Of a stretch of DNA of 64,000 nt, positions 15,698 through 56,438 are shown piece by piece. The translations under genes and the position numbers were made by a program. A model generated the notes under the pieces. The model ran no database searches. It had not been told where the DNA came from and worked only from the letters and a program-made list of their open reading frames with translations. The number at the start of each line of letters is the position of its first letter. Position 1 is the first letter of the stretch. Location of the stretch: IMG/VR virus record IMGVR_UViG_3300014204_000107, positions 43,468 through 107,467 of that record; one strand, 5' to 3'. Source of the stretch: a virus (lineage: Duplodnaviria; Heunggongvirae; Uroviricota; Caudoviricetes).

Positions 15698-16201
15698 ATG
15701 AAAACATACACCAAAGAAGAATTAGATGAAATTTTAAAAAACCATTCTCTGTGGTTGGTTGATAGTACCACAGGAGAAAGAGCCAACCTCAGTTCTGCCA
15801 ACCTCCGTTCTGCCGACCTCAGTTATGCCGACCTCCGTTCTGCCAACCTCCGTTCTGCCGACCTCAGTTATGCCGACCTCCGTTCTGCCAACCTCCGTTA
15901 TGCCGACCTCAGTTATGCCAACCTCAGTTATGCCAACCTCCGTTCTGCCAACCTCAGTTATGCCGACCTCGACTTTTCGTGTTGGTCGCTGTCGTGTGAT
16001 TCCCTAAACGTAAATGTTGATGAAAAGCTGTTCTATCAATTGCTTTTTCATACCCTTTCGCTCAAAGGACTTTCCCAAAGCGAAGACTTCCGCAAGGTTT
16101 ACAAGACTTGTAAGGACATTGCCAACAAGTTTCATCGTACAGAAATAGCAAGATTGGAAGATTTGCCCGACCAGGCAGAAGCCGAAAGGGGGCAGAAATG
16201 A
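15698..16201 (+). CDS. pentapeptide-repeat protein (A[DN]L[SR]xA[DN]L tandem repeats) with C-terminal non-repeat domain
   Basis: About 19 consecutive pentapeptide repeats; N-terminus EL.EILKNHSLWL shared with 38275. Confidence 0.65.
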   Translation: MKTYTKEELDEILKNHSLWLVDSTTGERANLSSANLRSADLSYADLRSANLRSADLSYADLRSANLRYADLSYANLSYANLRSANLSYADLDFSCWSLSCDSLNVNVDEKLFYQLLFHTLSLKGLSQSEDFRKVYKTCKDIANKFHRTEIARLEDLPDQAEAERGQK

Positions 16202-29550: not shown

Positions 29551-29945
29551 ATATTTTAGCAAGATCAAAAGTTTTGAATATTATTGTATAGCATCAAAAT
29601 TTAAATTAAAAATGAAATATGTGCAGGAAGAGAACTATTTGCAGCATTCAACAAAAATGTTGCATTTAGTTCTTTTTTTTATGAATATTTTTTTGTATGT
29701 TTGTGGTAATTAATCCATTAAAATCAAATTAAATGAATCCAGCCATTGGGGTGAAAGTCTTCACCGTAAGTACCAGTCCTTCCAACGATGATCTGGGGAT
29801 GAACTAACAAGTGCAATTAAAATATGGAGTGAAGCACACCCAGAGTTCTATATTCTTGACGTTCAGTGTGCAACTTCTAAATTTTTGTGCATAGTCACTA
29901 TCAAATATGAAATGCCTTATTAAAATAAACCAATAAAAACAAACA
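29551..29945 (+). ncRNA. ORF-free structured region downstream of the TnpB-like gene; candidate omega-RNA/reRNA scaffold plus guide
   Basis: Multiple local hairpins (e.g. GTGAA-AGTC-TTCAC); position expected for TnpB right-end RNA. Confidence 0.3.
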
Positions 29946-33034: not shown

Positions 33035-33107
33035 GCATAGGTAGATTTAATTGGTAAAATCCCTTCATTTTAGGAGGAAGATGGTGGTTCGATTCCACCT
33101 CTATGCA
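33035..33107 (+). tRNA. tRNA-Lys (anticodon UUU), no encoded CCA
   Basis: 7-bp acceptor (GCATAGG/TCTATGC), D-arm GATT/AATC with GG loop, anticodon loop AUUUUAG (U33, A37), T-arm GGTGG-TTCGATT-CCACC; N26 register ambiguous. Confidence 0.55.
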
Positions 33108-33136
33108 CAAACAATAAACAATTTAAAAACTGCACG

Positions 33137-33355: not shown

Positions 33356-33372
33356 CAACCAATTACGCTTAA

Positions 33373-33588
33373 CTAACGGTAAATATAATTAAAATGCGTT
33401 GTGTCGCCAACTAAATGCACACTATCAATATCTAATTGATTCATGGGTATGTATGGAATATGCATGTTATAATGATAATCATATACATAGATTGAGCTGG
33501 GCAATGGCTTTTTGCAATATACAATGTATAATTTATCAGAACAGGATGTGAATAATAGCAGTAATATTAAAATATATTTTTTTATCAT
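33373..33588 (-). CDS. possible small lipoprotein (MIKKYILILLLLFTSC)
   Basis: Signal/lipobox-like N-terminus; isolated minus-strand ORF in AT-rich gap. Confidence 0.25.
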   Translation of the reverse strand: MIKKYILILLLLFTSCSDKLYIVYCKKPLPSSIYVYDYHYNMHIPYIPMNQLDIDSVHLVGDTTHFNYIYR

Positions 33589-33768
33589 AAGTTTCTAACA
33601 ATATGTATATCAATATTAAAATTAATTATAATATTGCGTTGATCAGCAAAACTTAATTAGACGTATTTTAACACGATCTGACAAGCTCAAAATAGAAGAT
33701 GATACCTAATACTTATTCAAATAGAACGTCGAGCATATCTAACCAAACAGTCCCAAAATCAAATTGAA

Positions 33769-42103: not shown

Positions 42104-42290
42104 AACAGAAGACTGGACATCCAGCACTCCAATAGGTAGGTATATTGTTATAGTAAAAGTAACACCAGAATTTATGCAGGAGCCAGAACATATTGTGAGC
42201 CACAGTGAAAAGGCAGAATATATAGCGCAAGAAATTAAAGAAGAATTCTTAAAGAAATTGCAACCGAGCAAGCCAACTACCACATATTAA
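42072..42290 (+). CDS. small hypothetical protein
   Basis: ORF. Confidence 0.35.
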   Translation: MNKAVQITIIETEDWTSSTPIGRYIVIVKVTPEFMQEPEHIVSHSEKAEYIAQEIKEEFLKKLQPSKPTTTY

Positions 42291-43005
42291 TAAAAACCTA
42301 GAAATTGCAACCAAACTATATAATTTGGAAATTGCAACCAATTACCTAATATACAATAAGGTAATAATATTATAGCAAATAACTAAATACCAAGAAATTG
42401 CAACCAACAAGAATTTGCAACCAACCAACTAATCCATACCGTATAAATGACAGTAGGTAAATAGTACAAATAGCCTGCTCCAGAAATTGCAACCAACGTA
42501 AAAATCAATAGGTTGGGGAGACGGAGGACGGTGTCTGGCTTGACTGTGCATCTTTATTCAAGCGTCTACCTAATAAGACCACGACCGACCTAACCATTTA
42601 AATTGCATAACCAGTTTTAGCTGTTACGCATATAGCGGTAACCACATAGCAATAATGTCGCGGATGCATATTATTCTTCCAGCCTAATTGCAGTAGGTAG
42701 CTCGTGTTTCTTCCATATGTTATATTATACGCTATATCTATTACACTAAATAGAACGTAATAGTTTGCGTTATTGCTATAGGTGTCCTGCACCCATCCCG
42801 GAATAGATTATTCCTCGGTGTCTGCACATTGCGTTAAGTTGCTTTAATTGTGTTAGAAAACTGCGTCTTTCATACTGTTGTTCTATTGTATAAGGTAAAG
42901 GTAGGAAGAATAGTTGAGATACACAAATTTAATTTTATGCTTCGTTAGTGTTGCTTGGTGTAGGTTTATATAGTGCTATAGAAGCATAGCAGATAGATTT
43001 GGTAG

Positions 43006-43045
43006 AGTGGTATATTATTCCTATATTTGTATATAACAAAATTAA
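43006..43045 (+). promoter_or_regulatory. variant of the recurring TTTGGTAG…TTT…TATAACAA promoter/leader motif
   Basis: Motif similarity; precedes ATG 43054. Confidence 0.35.
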
Positions 43046-44064: not shown

Positions 44065-45034
44065 GCATTAGTGCTAATTCGATTTTTTATTTTTGGAAGA
44101 CTATATATTATAGAATAGGGTATCTGTGGTATTATACCAGCGCACCTTAATGCTAAGCTATCGTTAAGGGTTAATGCGGGTACATAAAGAGGCTAGCGAA
44201 TGCCATTACGCTATATTAATGTTGCCGTAACAGCGGGTGCGTTAGTCCTGCTCGGGCCGTTGGTAGACAGGCGAAACGTTTTTTGTAGTGTGGCGGCTAT
44301 AAATCGTATGGGGCCAGACTTAGATACGCTGGTTGCAGATCTAAGCATATACCACATTTAATGGGTGGCTTTATTATTTGGTAAGCAGGGTTGCCAGCCT
44401 TGTATGTTGCATATAATCATTGAAATATGCTAGTGTAACTCATGCAAGCAATGAGGTTTAGGTATAGCATGGCTACCAACTGTGTATGTTGCGCGTATAA
44501 CATTTATAAAACGTGATAGTTTGCATGTTTGCTCGATAAAACATTGCATATACATTGCGCTAGCTGCATGAATTTTGAATCATCGGCTAGATATTTCTGT
44601 CTTTGGTCGTTGCATAATATGCTATAAAATACTATACACAATAGATTTATAGTTTAGAAGGGGTATTGGATATATTTTCGGCAAAATTTCTTAAAAAATA
44701 TGATAATAAAAACTCAGGGCGCGCGGATATTTTTACTCATATAAGATAGTTCCTATGCTCGATTTGAATAGTATTTAGTGTGCGCATATAGCCGATATGG
44801 GAAAATAATCAAATAATTTCATTTCGCGGGATTTTTAATACTGTTGGTATATGTGCTTCGGTATTTGCTGGATTGCTACAGATATTTAGAAAAGTTTGAT
44901 AAAAAAATGCCATGGTCGATAAAAATTAATTCGAGCGTTCTTATTGCGTTATATAATAGAATCGAAGTTATGGTTGGCGCGTGGCTGTATGCGTACGCAT
45001 GTGCGTGTACATATAATATAGGTGCACCAAAAAT

Positions 45035-45085
45035 AATTTGGTATTCTGGTATAATTTACTTACCTTTATTCTATAACAATAAAAG
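45035..45085 (+). promoter_or_regulatory. recurring promoter/leader motif (TTTGGTAT…CTTACCTTTATTCTATAACAATAAA)
   Basis: Motif; precedes ATG 45095. Confidence 0.45.
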
Positions 45086-45094
45086 ACAATTTAA

Positions 45095-45341
45095 TATGAA
45101 AACAAATTTTAGACCTATTTACGAAATTGCTCGCGAGATAAGGAGTGATTGGAAAAACGTATATTATGGCGCCGTGCCATATTTGGATGCTATGCGTTCC
45201 ATAACAAACATAACCGATGCTTATTATGCTGACTCAGCAAAAAGCGTTGTGTTGTATTTCCTTGCCAATGCCAATACCTGGAAAGGTGAGGTTGCTCGCA
45301 GAATTAAGAAAGAATTAAATGATATGTGCAAATACAGGTAA
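45095..45341 (+). CDS. small hypothetical protein
   Basis: Start chosen downstream of promoter motif (ORF-track ORF begins 44844). Confidence 0.35.
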
Positions 45342-45412
45342 TTAGATCTGCTCGACGTTCTTTTTATAACTATATTGGTATATAAACAAGTATGAACGTC
45401 GAGCAGATCTAA
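45342..45412 (+). repeat. 19-bp perfect inverted repeat (TTAGATCTGCTCGACGTTC / GAACGTCGAGCAGATCTAA) with 33-nt loop; the right arm matches the 21-nt motif GAACGTCGAGCAGATCTAACC
   Basis: Read directly; starts one base after stop codon of 45095-45341. Confidence 0.6.
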
Positions 45413-45447
45413 CCTTATCAAGCTAAATTTTTAAAATAATAAATATC

Positions 45448-46698: not shown

Positions 46699-46906
46699 TA
46701 GCATTAGCCACTCTATAATATGCAAATAGAGCAAAGGTAAGTAAAATTTTCGATATTATGTTAATGGTGTTGAATTTTTACTTACCTTTATATTATGGCA
46801 TTGAAGGTTACAATAAAATGTAACCGTCCGTGGGGATAACGCGAAAATAATAACGCTGGAAAGTTCAATTCTTTCCCTTGCCACAAAGAACAAAATAAAA
46901 TAAAAT

Positions 46907-47600: not shown

Positions 47601-48029
47601 ATGGAAAACACTGAAAGAGAAGCTGTAACCAGCACCGAAACTGTTGAAGCAACAGTTGAAACCAAAGTATCAACCCCGAAGGCACCTAAAGCCCCTAAGG
47701 CACCGAAAGCCATTGCTCCTGTTGCTGAAGTCATTGATACTCCTGCGGCAGTTGAAGCTGAAGCCCCGGCAAAGAAAAGGCGTGGAAAAACCCCAACCAA
47801 AGCACAGATCCATTCTGTTGCCGATGTCATTGCCTTTGTGAAAAACACTGCTGATGAAAAGGCCGTTGCCAAAAGGCTCAAGGAAGTCTTTTCCAGCAAG
47901 TTCACTGAACAGAAAGAACTGATCATTGAAGCGCTGCACCCGGAAATGAATTCTGCCACGCCTAAGAGGCAGGAATGGTACAAAGCCGTTGGGTCGAAGA
48001 TCCGCAATGCCCGCAAACCGAAGTTCTAG
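47601..48029 (+). CDS. Lys/Ala/Pro-rich basic protein (KAPKAPKAPKA repeats), histone H1-like / nucleoid-associated candidate
   Basis: Composition; GC-rich relative to surroundings. Confidence 0.45.
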   Translation: MENTEREAVTSTETVEATVETKVSTPKAPKAPKAPKAIAPVAEVIDTPAAVEAEAPAKKRRGKTPTKAQIHSVADVIAFVKNTADEKAVAKRLKEVFSSKFTEQKELIIEALHPEMNSATPKRQEWYKAVGSKIRNARKPKF

Positions 48030-48279
48030 GAACTGCCACCGTTAGGGTGGAATGAGTAAAGGCCGCCGGTTATGCAGTTTGCAGCCGGTGGCCCTTTTAA
48101 TAAAGCAGCTTATAAGATAATAGAACATTTGCTCTTCGCCAGAGAAGCAGCAAATCCCTGGGTGGATCGGGGTATAAGCACAATTAAAAATAATAAGATA
48201 ATGCTGTTACAGCAGGTTCATGTTTCTTCTTATTGTTATAGAGTGTGCCGGCTTCGCGCCGGCATTTCTCTGATATTTT

Positions 48280-51023: not shown

Positions 51024-52514
51024 ATGTCAAAAGAATCAACATTAGTATTTCCTGTATCAACGGGTAATGCTGTATGGTTTATAAGCGACGACAGAAAAAC
51101 TATATTAGATGTCGTTGATCCCGGACAACAGAGAAAAGCAAAAGCCGCCGAGGCAGCTGGACAAGTTGGAATACTTGGGTGGCGCGGAAAAGTTGAAAGA
51201 GAAGTTAAAGTTAAATACATTGACAGAAGCGATCTTCGATTGTATTGGTGTGAAAATTTCACTGATTGGTTTTCGGCCATTTCATCTGATGCTGCATTAC
51301 TCTCTAATTTTAATAACAAATACAGCATTGCCAACTATTTAACTGACGGTGATGTTGATACGATGCTTAAGTTGGTTGACAACCATACAGCGGTAGTTGT
51401 ATCAGGGTTATCCGGCAATTCACAGCCGAAATCACAGAAAAAAGGTAGACCTGCTAAGAAAGCAAAGGTTTCAAATTCTGCCGGTACTGCTGCACAGATG
51501 AGAAATCAAGTGGCTGTAAGTGCTACAGTAAGTCCCGAAGATACAGCAACAGAAACTGAAGAGCTGGCGGAAGTAGCTCCTGCAGAACCGGCCAAGGCTA
51601 TCGACGTTGACTTAAGCTGTGAGAACATGGCTCAGCGACTTGCAAATTTTGCAATGGTAAAGCCCGAAGAGCTTATCATTAGCGATCTTAAATGGAAATT
51701 TTTAATCCGTTCGGTATTACGCGGAAAAAACATATTGGTAACTGGCCAGTCTGGCACAGGGAAGACCAAATCGATTAATTCAGTTGCAAAGCTGATGGTT
51801 GAAGATCACCCGTTATTCATTATTCCTTGCGGAAATACAACTGATGCAAAGAGTATTTTATTGGGCAATACCAAATACAGCCCCGAGAGAGGCACTTACC
51901 TTAGCGAATCTGAATTTGTGAAAGCAATCCAGACGCCCAATGCAATTGTATATCTTGACGAGTTTACGCGTTTACACCCGGATGGGCAGAATATATTAAT
52001 GACAGTGCTTGACCACACACAGAGGGAACTCGTATTGGACGAAGCTGAGGGATGTCCTACTATTAAAGTAGCACCTGGAGTGTGTTTCATGGCTACGGCA
52101 AATATTGGGAAACAGTATAGCGCTACAAGATCCATTGACCGTGCATTGTTAGACAGATTCAATGTTACTTTCGAAATGGAGCCATTAGAGATCATGCAGG
52201 AACTTGAACTTATCTTCATGGAATACGGCAAGCCCGCTATTAAGATGAGGAATGAAATTTGCAAGGTGCTTGACGTTATCGACTCCATTAGGAAAGACTA
52301 CAATAACGAAAATACTGAGCTTACAACCTTTATTAGCACAAGGCCAGTGCTTGAAATTGCTGGACTGTTGCTTGATGGGTTTAGCCCTCTTGAATGCATT
52401 GAAGTATGTATTTATCCGTTATACAGCGACGATGGTGGAACCGAAAGTGAACGTGCATTGGTAAAGAAGATAGTACAAAAAGCAGGCTTTGCTCCTGCTG
52501 ATCAAACGATATAA
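51024..52514 (+). CDS. CobS/MoxR-like AAA+ ATPase (Walker A GQSGTGKTKS, Walker B YLDEFTRLHPDGQNILMTVLD) with ~200-aa N-terminal extension
   Basis: AAA_5/MoxR-type motifs; adjacent to vWA partner. Confidence 0.55.
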   Translation: MSKESTLVFPVSTGNAVWFISDDRKTILDVVDPGQQRKAKAAEAAGQVGILGWRGKVEREVKVKYIDRSDLRLYWCENFTDWFSAISSDAALLSNFNNKYSIANYLTDGDVDTMLKLVDNHTAVVVSGLSGNSQPKSQKKGRPAKKAKVSNSAGTAAQMRNQVAVSATVSPEDTATETEELAEVAPAEPAKAIDVDLSCENMAQRLANFAMVKPEELIISDLKWKFLIRSVLRGKNILVTGQSGTGKTKSINSVAKLMVEDHPLFIIPCGNTTDAKSILLGNTKYSPERGTYLSESEFVKAIQTPNAIVYLDEFTRLHPDGQNILMTVLDHTQRELVLDEAEGCPTIKVAPGVCFMATANIGKQYSATRSIDRALLDRFNVTFEMEPLEIMQELELIFMEYGKPAIKMRNEICKVLDVIDSIRKDYNNENTELTTFISTRPVLEIAGLLLDGFSPLECIEVCIYPLYSDDGGTESERALVKKIVQKAGFAPADQTI

Positions 52515-52586
52515 TTAGTGTTTACTAATTGTTACGTGCAAGCGCTGGCTAGACTTTATTGTTTAGCCGGCGTAAGCATGACCAGA

Positions 52587-53425: not shown

Positions 53426-53564
53426 AAAGAAATGTGTCCAACAATTTTAGGAATTACCATTGGAGTATTTGTATGCATTCTAGCAGTAGGTCTTGCTGTT
53501 TGGTTTACACGGAAATTGGAAGATGAATGTGACGATGATATAATGATTTTTTAACAATAAGAAC

Positions 53565-53819
53565 ATGATAAAAAGAGTATTAGCGTTTGACACGGAATCT
53601 ATGTCGGGCGACCCGTGTGAATTTATATTTGATTCTGAAAAAGGAATTGCCAAGCAAATAATGGATGACAGCATTGAAGATGGTGAACCAGTTACCTTTG
53701 AGGAAGCAGTTGCATGGTGGATTGAAAATCCTGCCCCAGAAGATGAAAACTTCATCTTCTTGACAGACGAACAGATGGAAGACGCGTATACCCTGTTAAA
53801 GAGCATCCTTGGCAAATAA
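53565..53819 (+). CDS. small acidic protein
   Basis: ORF. Confidence 0.4.
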   Translation: MIKRVLAFDTESMSGDPCEFIFDSEKGIAKQIMDDSIEDGEPVTFEEAVAWWIENPAPEDENFIFLTDEQMEDAYTLLKSILGK

Positions 53820-53843
53820 AGCAATAAAAATATTCTTTAAGGT

Positions 53844-53885
53844 ATTTGGTGGTTTGAGAAATTATTCCTAACTTTACCTTGTTGT
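53844..53885 (+). promoter_or_regulatory. recurring promoter motif (variant) with no ORF downstream; faces the 53.9-54.75 kb ORF-free island
   Basis: TTTGGTGGTTTGAGAAATTATTCCTAACTTTACCTTG. Confidence 0.4.
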
Positions 53886-53889
53886 TTTG

Positions 53890-54720
53890 GACGAAATACT
53901 GTCCAGAACCTATAATCCCGGAAAAGGCAATATTGCCGCAAAACTTAGATTGTTTATACACCATTTAAAAGGAGGACGCAATGGAACCACCCGGTTAGTT
54001 TAGCTTTATATATTATTATTTTATTTTGATCTTTGACATCTTGTGAATTAGTAGGTTACCATGTAGTGCTCATACTTGAATGCTTTACATACGTCCCTCG
54101 CCTCCCTGTTGTATCGTGGTTTGACCGCCATTGTTGGCCACTTTGGTTCCGATAACTGTATGAACTTCATAGACGCATACGCTTTCTGTTGTCCATAGTT
54201 CTTGGCACGCATGGAAATAACCTATTAGCTTGGATTGGCGCTGTTACTATTCCGAAATGGTAACGGGGCCTTAACAAGCACCAGTGCATAATATGCGCGT
54301 TCTCGTAAGTGCAGCCATTTATTTTCCGCCGGCCGCTCTACATTAGTAGCATGGGACCGAGCTCCGTGGCCGAATCGAGTTAAATAGCTACGCATATATG
54401 TATTGCCAGAGTGGCTGGTACCCCACTCACTCAGTTTGCTTGTAGGGAAGTAAAACCTGCAAGGTACCACATTCCGAGAAAAGGCAATACACACTGGTTT
54501 TCACGAGTGTTGATACATCTAACCCTGCCGGGGCCTAATAAAGTGGCCTTTGGTGGGGTTTTCTGTTTTAGATCGATTCTTATGACTATTTTATAGTAGA
54601 TGATGTCAGGTATGTGGTTTATATGAACGTCGAGCAGACCTCACCATTTTGATTCAAATCCAACTTTACAGATATTGGTTAGAACCAAATACTACAAACA
54701 GTATTGCAATCTAAGCAATA
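53890..54720 (+). ncRNA. ORF-free GC-elevated island directly downstream of a promoter motif; candidate large structured ncRNA
   Basis: No + strand ORF of 60 aa or more in 830 nt of an otherwise gene-dense genome; only short - strand junk ORFs; local GC clearly above flanks. Confidence 0.3.
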
Positions 54721-54725
54721 AAATA

Positions 54726-54772
54726 TATTTGGTAGTTTGATATAATTTACTTACCTTTACATATAAACAATA
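54726..54772 (+). promoter_or_regulatory. recurring promoter/leader motif
   Basis: TTTGGTAGTTTGATATAATTTACTTACCTTTACATATAAACAATAA before ATG 54779. Confidence 0.45.
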
Positions 54773-54778
54773 ACAGGC

Positions 54779-54955
54779 ATGATTTTAAAAATTGAATTTG
54801 GTGACGAAGACCTTGCTTCCTTAGCGGAAGAAAATGGACTGTCAATTGCCGACATGGTAACGGTTCTTGAGGAAATTGCAATGGATGCACTGTCTGATGA
54901 TTATGGCATTGCAGAAGCAGCAAGTGGTTATGCTGAACGAATTAAAGAAGAATAA
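54779..54955 (+). CDS. small acidic protein (58 aa, below ORF-track cut-off)
   Basis: ATG right after promoter/leader motif. Confidence 0.3.
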   Translation: MILKIEFGDEDLASLAEENGLSIADMVTVLEEIAMDALSDDYGIAEAASGYAERIKEE

Positions 54956-54956
54956 A

Positions 54957-55202
54957 ATGAACAAACCAACAACAGGAAACAGAAAAGCCAATGCGCTGAT
55001 CAATCAATTCATTGAAGAATCCGATTGCAAGCCAGAACTTAAAGATAATCTTTACGAGGCTTTGGTTGAGGCAGTGATCGAAGATTACAGTGACGAACCA
55101 AACAATATTAAGCTAATTGAAATGCAAGATATTTACGAAATAGTAGATTCCTGCATCCCAATGGAAGATTACGAACCGCAAGAAGACGAAGATGAAGAAT
55201 AA
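54957..55202 (+). CDS. small acidic protein
   Basis: ORF, internal Met start after upstream stop. Confidence 0.4.
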   Translation: MNKPTTGNRKANALINQFIEESDCKPELKDNLYEALVEAVIEDYSDEPNNIKLIEMQDIYEIVDSCIPMEDYEPQEDEDEE

Positions 55203-55392
55203 GACATACAAGGATTGGATTATATGGGGCAAAAAGGTTACAGATAAGTATATTGCTGGCAAGCAATTCATCCCCGATCCCAGTGAATACAAGGACATGG
55301 TAATTGATGCCGTTTTGGAGGAGTTGCCAAGTGTTGATAACCTTACCTATAGCGAGCTGTCAAAGGCTTATAACGAGCTAAACAGGCAATAA
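55192..55392 (+). CDS. small hypothetical protein
   Basis: ORF. Confidence 0.35.
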   Translation: MKNKTYKDWIIWGKKVTDKYIAGKQFIPDPSEYKDMVIDAVLEELPSVDNLTYSELSKAYNELNRQ

Positions 55393-55663: not shown

Positions 55664-55849
55664 ATGAAAATTACAGTAGAAGTAAATGATGACAGAATTG
55701 CCGAAATGGCAGAACAGTATGATTTAACTGTGGATGAAATGGAAGCCGCGGTTGAAGATCTGTTTGACTGGATTGCTGGCAGCAACCTTGAAGAATCTAT
55801 TGAAGGCGAAGGTAGCTTTGACCCGGAATCGTACAGAGGAGAACGGTGA
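55664..55849 (+). CDS. small acidic protein
   Basis: ORF. Confidence 0.35.
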   Translation: MKITVEVNDDRIAEMAEQYDLTVDEMEAAVEDLFDWIAGSNLEESIEGEGSFDPESYRGER

Positions 55850-56163
55850 GAAAGCTACGTCTATATCTGGATGACCAGCGGCCATTACCAGATGATGGGT
55901 TTGATTTCCTTATTCGCACCGTAGAGGATGCCATTAAATATATCAACCAAAATGCAGTTGAGTTCATATCACTTGACAATGATTTAGGAGTTGGCTATAC
56001 TGAAGGTTATAAGGTGGCCGACTACATCGAGCATGCCTACATCTGTGGTGATATTGAGTTTGTTGACTTCATGCCGCACACTAATAACCCAGGTGCAGCT
56101 AGACGAATGTGGCAAGCACGTGAAAATGTGTACAAACATAAAGCTGCATTAGAAGCATTATAA
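55846..56163 (+). CDS. hypothetical protein
   Basis: ORF. Confidence 0.4.
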   Translation: MRKLRLYLDDQRPLPDDGFDFLIRTVEDAIKYINQNAVEFISLDNDLGVGYTEGYKVADYIEHAYICGDIEFVDFMPHTNNPGAARRMWQARENVYKHKAALEAL

Positions 56164-56246
56164 TAATATTAGGATATTAAGGAATTATTTCATAACTTTG
56201 TACTTGTGGAATAGTTCTTTTTTTATGACTATTAATTAACAACTAT

Positions 56247-56438
56247 ATGGGAGACCTCTTAACATCAATACTACTGCTAGTTTTACTATTTATTGCTATG
56301 GCCAATACTAAAAAAGTAATACAGTACAGCGGAATACTTGGTGCAATTCTAATGTATGCATTTATAATCGCATGTATTATTGGCAAGTTCATGCAATACT
56401 TGGGAATAATCCCATCAATCCTTAACTACAGCAACTAA
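56247..56438 (+). CDS. small membrane protein
   Basis: ORF, hydrophobic. Confidence 0.35.
   Translation: MGDLLTSILLLVLLFIAMANTKKVIQYSGILGAILMYAFIIACIIGKFMQYLGIIPSILNYSN

Follow-up and report, generated by a model that had tools for sequence, protein, structure and literature searches.

The interval at ~53884-54567 of the window, that is, of the whole 64,000-nt stretch of DNA analysed here, is tentatively interpreted as a free-standing transcription unit for a non-coding RNA (ncRNA), carried by an uncultivated 299-kb phage that probably infects a member of the Bacteroidota. With its own promoter and terminator and no gene in between, the interval probably makes such an RNA. Because it appeared non-coding in every test, follows an intact promoter, and ends in a plus-strand terminator, an ORF-less transcript of ~0.68 kb is the simplest reading. 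The first-pass annotation of this DNA had proposed that a promoter motif fires into an ORF-free, GC-elevated island (hereafter, the island) encoding a large structured ncRNA. The lack of coding signal, the promoter, and the plus-strand terminator speak for that proposal, but no Rfam family was matched and the folding z-score was ordinary for this genome. We therefore regard "ncRNA" as a plausible label for the island and "large structured ncRNA" as an unproven one.

The gap between the genes at 53565..53819 and 54779..54955 measures 959 nt, and the source gene callers called no gene in it on three independent contigs. Its longest plus-strand ORFs comprise 38, 40, 40, and 61 aa and start with TTG or GTG, in agreement with the earlier statement that ~850 nt here contain no sizeable plus-strand ORF. 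The longest open stretches on the minus strand are 89 aa (54225..54494) and 54 aa (54048..54212), which share one frame with TAA TAG between them; by our own estimate, chance alone would produce an open stretch of 91 codons ~0.6 times in 959 nt of the island composition. With a codon-usage model trained on the long ORFs of the window, log-odds were negative in all six frames of 53880-54700, and the flanking genes scored +0.1 to +0.4 in frame. Period-3 spectral power in the island was 0.7, a noise-level value that places the island among the lowest 9% of same-length windows. Searches for protein homology were equally empty. Nine stop-to-stop stretches taken from all frames of the island gave no match in Pfam or PHROGs, and tblastn of all window ORFs against the island returned promoter-derived matches only, without a paralog in the window. 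An exhaustive phmmer search with the 91-aa minus-strand stretch against 1.84 billion representatives yielded just two matches, which are artefacts because they fall in repetitive proteins with many weak repeated matches. The first-pass annotation had named a degraded gene as one outcome that would speak against an RNA. The frames of the island retained neither residual protein homology nor codon periodicity, and a pseudogene was rejected on the combined results of six-frame inspection, Pfam, PHROGs, phmmer, tblastn, and period-3 analysis. Stop-codon reassignment was also rejected: TAA, TAG, and TGA are each present in all six frames of the island, so that no single recoding opens a frame.

In the Bacteroidota, the sigma-A consensus consists of a -33 TTTG and a -7 TAnnTTTG ~19-21 nt apart. 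The window contains 13 plus-strand copies of a motif, TTTG-N20-TAnnTTTA with a phage-specific extension, which we take to be a promoter of this type; the last -7 base is A instead of the consensus G in every copy. The copy in front of the island (TTTGGTGGTTTGAGAAATTATTCCTAACTTTA, 53845..53876, plus strand, 32 nt) combines a -33-like TTTG, a 20-nt spacer, and a -7-like TAACTTTA. Its spacing is that of the other copies and its sole core change falls in the degenerate "nn" positions, and these conserved elements predict an active promoter. Downstream of the other 12 plus-strand copies, the first ATG lies within 4-45 nt and opens an ORF of 40-875 aa; the 53845 copy is the only one without a real ORF within 45 nt. 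The first ATG after it, at 53981, opens just 5 codons, and the next ATG ORF of at least 35 aa follows at 902 nt, behind a promoter of its own. The earlier description of an intact motif variant without a following gene is thus borne out, as is the statement that the next canonical copy starts the following gene: that copy (54728..54759, plus strand) forms the right cassette border and ends 19 nt ahead of the ATG of gene 54779..54955, which it would drive. Directly 5' of the 53845 promoter lies the module AGCAATAAAA (53820..53829, plus strand), which is repeated exactly at 54714-54723, and GCAATAAAA is found again at 55387. This module is part of a duplicated promoter cassette and not a target-site duplication. 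Elsewhere in the window, very stable hairpins are located just 5' of promoter copies at gene ends (46733-46793, 48240-48270, 52540-52575, and 60708-60759), with z-scores of -5.8 to -7.3 in 200-nt windows; the one at 46733-46793 is made from an inverted copy of the promoter's own TTTACTTACCTTT segment.

Judging from the promoter geometry, transcription would start at ~53881-53885. The TTCTATAACAATAA leader that usually follows this promoter is absent here, and a 10-bp hairpin, GUUUUGGACG/UGUCCAGAAC, is found in its place at 53884..53909 (plus strand), at the predicted 5' end of the transcript (dG -17.4 and z -3.4 for a 66-nt segment). The predicted transcript body (53884..54567, plus strand, ~0.68 kb) has no positive codon score in any frame. 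At its 3' end, an intrinsic-terminator-like hairpin, CCCUGCCGGGGCC-loop-GGCCUUUGGUGGGG followed by UUUUCUGUU, occupies 54523..54567 on the plus strand, with 14-15 bp, a 9-nt loop, a dG of -20.6 kcal/mol, and a segment z of -3.5. It ranks second in strength among the 23 plus-strand terminator-like sites in the window, and the others of comparable strength are located at gene ends. G-U pairs make up about a third of the stem, which would restrict its function as a terminator to the plus-strand RNA; the stock terminator scanner missed it because of the 9-nt loop. This predicted hairpin with its U-tract therefore bounds a discrete plus-strand unit of ~0.68 kb that opens with the 5' hairpin. Inside the unit, at 53969-53998, a perfect AAGGAGG stands 5 nt before ATG GAA CCA CCC GGT TAG (MEPPG-stop), which is unusual in a genome otherwise without Shine-Dalgarno sequences. 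This AAGGAGG can also base-pair with CCUCC at 54103-54107 and so may have a structural role instead of serving as a ribosome binding site.

We next consider which kind of RNA this could be. Rfam 15 covariance models applied to the whole window with cmscan at gathering scores detected only a tRNA at 33035, and a scan of 53600-55000 at E<=10 with lax filters gave three chance matches, none of them within the island body; nor did ARAGORN detect anything in the island. The database comparison suggested by the first-pass annotation accordingly went against the families it had in mind, as GOLLD, ROOL, HEARO, OLE, raiA, and the group I/II introns remained unmatched even at E<=10. The island likewise did not match the models of omega RNA, tmRNA, RNase P, or 6S RNA. 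A group I/II intron was rejected on two grounds: Intron_gpI, Intron_gpII, and group-II-D1D4 had no match in 53600-55000 at that threshold, and the neighbors 53565..53819 and 54779..54955 are complete ORFs, the latter with its own promoter. A HEARO/IscB-TnpB omega RNA was rejected since, besides the lack of a model match, no IscB, IsrB, or TnpB ORF lies within several kb; the neighboring proteins are 40-131 aa long and have no relevant Pfam matches. The location is also unlike that of GOLLD and ROOL, which typically, though not by definition, lie next to tRNA genes in a phage or prophage: the sole tRNA gene in the 64 kb (33035-33108) is 20.8 kb away. This tRNA gene scored 42.6 bits with Rfam, but ARAGORN left its anticodon unassigned ("tt", tRNA-???), and its anticodon loop may be atypical or the gene may be degenerate; a short way 3' of it is a 410-nt AT-rich ORF-free stretch (33356-33768).

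The predicted transcript folds at -208 kcal/mol with a z-score of -2.76 (100 dinucleotide shuffles), and the minus strand of the island gave -0.65, an asymmetry that favors the plus strand. Fourteen plus-strand control windows of the same length had z-scores of -1.73 +/- 1.20 with a minimum of -4.02. The island falls inside this spread, and its fold is thus ordinary for this genome; the energy is not well below those of both shuffled and genomic controls. In 200-nt windows, the island reached just -1.5 to -2.4, whereas terminator hairpins elsewhere reached -5 to -7. Its low absolute folding energy is due to its GC content, and an exceptional thermodynamic structure was ruled out against the genomic controls. 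Antisense pairing to phage mRNA leaders was examined as well, and the duplex energies equaled those of shuffled controls, which makes a simple antisense role against these leaders unlikely.

On this evidence, we propose the following scheme. Host RNA polymerase would start at a promoter type shared with a dozen neighboring small genes, and the ncRNA would be expressed together with these surrounding, presumably early, genes. The RNA would consist, in order, of the 10-bp 5' hairpin, an AT-rich tract, a ~500-nt core at 47% GC, and the G-U-rich terminator. It would remain untranslated: near the 5' end, ATG ORFs do not exceed 5 codons, the A-rich leader is missing, and coding statistics give no signal. 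Bounded by hairpins, it might act in trans, most likely by binding proteins or serving as a scaffold and not by antisense pairing. The scheme presumes an active promoter, efficient termination, and a stable RNA with a function in trans.

The island and its flanks (1,391 nt) are 100% identical on four contigs from four datasets, and these contigs share at least 99.98% identity across up to 10 kb. They comprise the ~299-kb phage contig k141_2421633 of ENA ERZ27247350, a contig of the JGI landfill metagenome 3300035208 (identified through bioRxiv 10.1101/2024.05.30.596742), and two Logan assemblies (SRR6484787 and SRR18595299). Only these identical copies of the island were recovered, and no diverged homolog appeared in any collection searched: blastn searches of 50,697 phage records and 72,556 plasmids gave nothing, and 20-mers of the island were present neither in IMG/VR nor in 185,579 GTDB genomes. 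Pattern searches of IMG/VR for the promoter and for a 21-nt motif described below gave one unrelated locus. Scanning JGI metagenomes for the promoter-leader pattern yielded 15 loci, of which two on short contigs (L009 and L020) look like distant relatives; nhmmer detected no island homolog at any promoter-leader locus from the JGI contigs. A further 20 kb of the same genome contained no island paralog. The flanking 84-aa protein had no homolog but itself among 5.8 billion clusters. The nearest relatives were those of the neighboring AAA ATPase (68% identical) and of a PRPP synthetase-like protein (49%), and they sit on tiny or non-syntenic contigs.

The assignment to a Bacteroidota host was derived from the promoter type and from the leader and translation-start features. 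Nearly all genes in the window are on the plus strand, 92 of the 112 called genes start with ATG, and a Shine-Dalgarno-like core is present upstream in only 14 of 111 crude gene calls, the leaders being A-rich. Few Shine-Dalgarno sequences and A-rich leaders are the translation-start pattern of the Bacteroidota, and the named homologs of the PRPP synthetase-like protein are from Flavobacterium and Pedobacter. The phage carries an NAD-salvage pair, the PRPP synthetase-like protein and NAMPT, together with endonuclease VII, a cREC_REC domain protein, and a CobS/MoxR-like AAA ATPase; these genes are located at 57163-60687, 55846-56163, and 51024-52514. The PRPP synthetase/NAMPT pair resembles an NrtR-linked operon on contig L028, which looks bacterial and Bacteroidota-like because of a Por_Secre_tail protein. 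Cohesin, dockerin, PARP, and cold-shock domain proteins are encoded just outside the window, in the flanks seen at L023 and L024.

The main rival to an ncRNA gene is that the island is inert cargo: foreign or long-decayed DNA caught between duplicated promoter cassettes in a hyperplastic small-gene region, incidentally transcribed and functionless. We consider this somewhat unlikely. Part of the support for it is compositional. The core at 54051..54550 has a GC content of 47.5% against 34.6% for the window, with values of 0.47-0.485 at 54100-54500; in 400-nt windows, the island peaks at 0.477 against a window mean of 0.346 (sd 0.048), ~+2.7 sd. The two GC runs quoted in the first-pass annotation were located at 54327-54339 and 54354-54380. 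Its claim of a higher local GC holds for the 3' two-thirds of the unit but not for 53880-54100, where GC is only 0.36-0.385 and the first 200 nt of the unit are thus not GC-rich. In the 5' part of the core, T exceeds A on the plus strand, opposite to the plus-strand genes, and the AT skew is lowest (-0.33) at 54000-54199, just 5' of the core. Such a reversed skew and a foreign-looking GC content fit captured DNA as well as an RNA gene. Elsewhere in the window, two islands with equally high GC are overlapped by long ORFs, namely 15698..16201, whose product is a pentapeptide-repeat protein, and 47601..48029. High GC alone is thus no marker of RNA genes here, and both islands may likewise have been acquired.

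The borders of the island are also consistent with cargo. Near-identical promoter modules, including AGCAATAAAA, stand on both sides, and the modules together with the upstream (A)GCAATAAAA are dispersed near-identical repeats (53820, 54714, and 55387). A Logan contig (L003) ends exactly at two promoter modules, 52593 and 55427, which suggests cassette-like borders where recombination could shuffle small genes. Mobile promoter cassettes of the PeSL type have reportedly been described in T4-type phages by Arbiol, Comeau, Krisch and colleagues in 2010. As in these, a repeated early-type promoter module, often preceded by a stem-loop, borders small variable cargo within one region; unlike in these, the cargo here has no ORF, and recombination at the repeats is a supposition. 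A mobile element was rejected: the best candidate for terminal inverted repeats, 22 nt at 77%, is unconvincing, a target-site duplication is absent, and the direct repeat on either side is simply the promoter module.

Two further observations would suit inert cargo, namely the ordinary structure statistics and the two longest open stretches lying in one minus-strand frame, although an open stretch of that length is within chance expectation. The genome moreover tolerates non-coding DNA. The earlier statement that other intergenic gaps are under 100 nt was wrong, since several ORF-poor gaps of 0.4-1 kb exist in the window: 42291-43026, 44065-44843 (reaching ~45096 if the next gene begins at its ATG), 25919-26499, 62891-63389, 56164-56631, 33356-33768, and 29551-29945, with approximate boundaries because the crude gene caller misses some real genes. 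The gap at 56164-56631 is seen in the source gene calls too. Starting at the same position as the second of these gaps, an ORF-free stretch of ~1 kb (44065-45036) has no Rfam match at E<=1; its plus strand folds far more stably than its minus strand in absolute terms, with z-scores near 0. Against inert cargo, no trace of protein homology or period-3 signal remains in any frame of the island, and shallow tests of GTDB genomes, plasmids, and phages revealed no donor. In addition, random cargo would not be expected to have its two ends marked precisely by a 5' hairpin and a well-formed plus-strand terminator.

An improbable alternative is a cis-acting element without a trans function, in which the promoter and a leaky terminator make up a long leader, or an attenuator, of the genes downstream, or the island is a long 3' UTR of the upstream operon (53432..53819). 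As no terminator is present between gene 53565..53819 and the island, upstream transcripts should enter it, and 160 nt after the island terminator there is another promoter for the same downstream gene. These 160 nt contain a regulatory-looking 21-nt motif, GAACGTCGAGCAGAyCTmACC (copy at 54625..54645, plus strand), which lies past the terminator and is therefore probably outside the RNA. However, gene 54779..54955 has a full promoter immediately before its ATG like the other small genes, no riboswitch or leader family was matched, and ~0.7 kb would be very long compared with the 4-45 nt of other leaders from the same promoter type. The motif itself occurs four times in the window, with 0 copies expected from shuffles: 33724-33744 (+), 45340-45360 (-), 45394-45414 (+), and 54625-54645 (+). 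Two of the copies form a perfect ~19-bp inverted repeat (dG -36.5, z -7.9) directly after the stop of the gene ending at 45341, and two finish ~24-34 nt ahead of an ATG. It was not found in IMG/VR and could represent another class of promoter or a site bound by a regulator.

Still less probable is a DNA-level element, such as a transcription-activated origin. Transcription primes replication at phage origins such as T4 oriF and oriG and the T7 primary origin. As at those origins, the promoter here fires into ORF-free DNA with an AT-rich tract, in this case 33 nt of ~15% GC (54003..54035) that lie ~120 nt 3' of the promoter and divide the low-GC 5' part of the unit from the GC-rich core. Unlike those origins, the island has no other origin features: the repeat search gave no iterons and no other internal repeats, GC skew keeps its sign around the island, and such AT-rich tracts are common in this 35% GC genome. 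A comparable layout exists near 42943-42892, and the iteron region at 42.25-42.5 kb is the better origin candidate. Six direct iteron-like copies of RGAAWTTGCAACCRA are present there at 42253-42510, within a 0.75-kb ORF-poor gap. A minus-strand promoter copy at 42892-42943 (TTTG-N20-TACCTTTA) fires leftwards into ORF-free DNA towards these repeats; its first ATG opens only 6 codons, and it is divergent from a plus-strand promoter at 42997-43030. This region may be a replication origin or a regulatory hub, and it offers a second candidate case of a "promoter without a gene".

Unrecognised coding, through the small non-ATG ORFs on either strand or through unusual decoding, is very hard to credit: such ORFs exist and AAGGAGG precedes the ATG at 53981, but that ORF is merely MEPPG-stop, all frames have negative codon scores, no period-3 signal, and all three stop codon types, the protein searches found no homologs, the A-rich leader is missing from all of these ORFs, and the genome relies mostly on ATG starts and seldom on Shine-Dalgarno-like cores.

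If the island is a stand-alone ncRNA gene, its closest architectural analog is, by likeness of layout, an ncRNA of the lytic Vibrio phage ICP1, whose most abundant transcript (~800 nt) comes from a ~1-kb ORF-less gap between gp139 and gp140 (PMC7567579). Both have an ORF-less gap of ~1 kb, a transcript of ~0.7-0.8 kb, no family assignment, and no adjacent tRNA genes. They differ in that the ICP1 RNA was demonstrated by RNA-seq while the island RNA is predicted only, the hosts are unrelated, and blastn against a phage collection that should hold ICP1 genomes revealed no sequence similarity. GOLLD and ROOL are large ornate RNAs of phages and prophages (Harris & Breaker, 2018; cryo-EM in PMC12286853). 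The island shares with them the size class of ~0.5-0.8 kb, carriage by a phage, and a GC content above its surroundings; it differs in having no covariance-model match and no nearby tRNA gene, and in folding statistics that give no sign of an ornate conserved structure. The lncRNAs of Staphylococcus phage K (PMC9241854) and the four ncRNAs of jumbo phage PA5oct (PMC7318152) are, like the island, orphan, ORF-less, and defined by promoter/terminator context, but they are supported by expression, whereas the island RNA is predicted and has no homology to them by blastn. No claim of descent from the ICP1, phage K, PA5oct, GOLLD, or ROOL RNAs is possible. In the simplest reading, the unit would join the loosely defined group of "phage long ncRNAs of unknown function" as a new member. 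In a bolder version, which we think doubtful, the island would found a new large (~0.7 kb) phage RNA family; its RNA would be made early by the host polymerase, would be functionally comparable to the ICP1 ncRNA or the GOLLD/ROOL-type RNAs, and would be an orphan only through sparse sampling of the phage lineage.

The case rests on one sequence and is chiefly useful as a candidate flagged for transcript mapping; the unit would be easy to synthesise and probe. A lesson from this locus is that, in this genome, GC-rich, ORF-free DNA between promoter cassettes is not necessarily structured RNA. Long non-coding transcripts are increasingly found in lytic and jumbo phages, and a clean promoter-to-terminator unit from a megaphage of Bacteroidota type would contribute an example from hosts whose phage RNA biology is barely explored.
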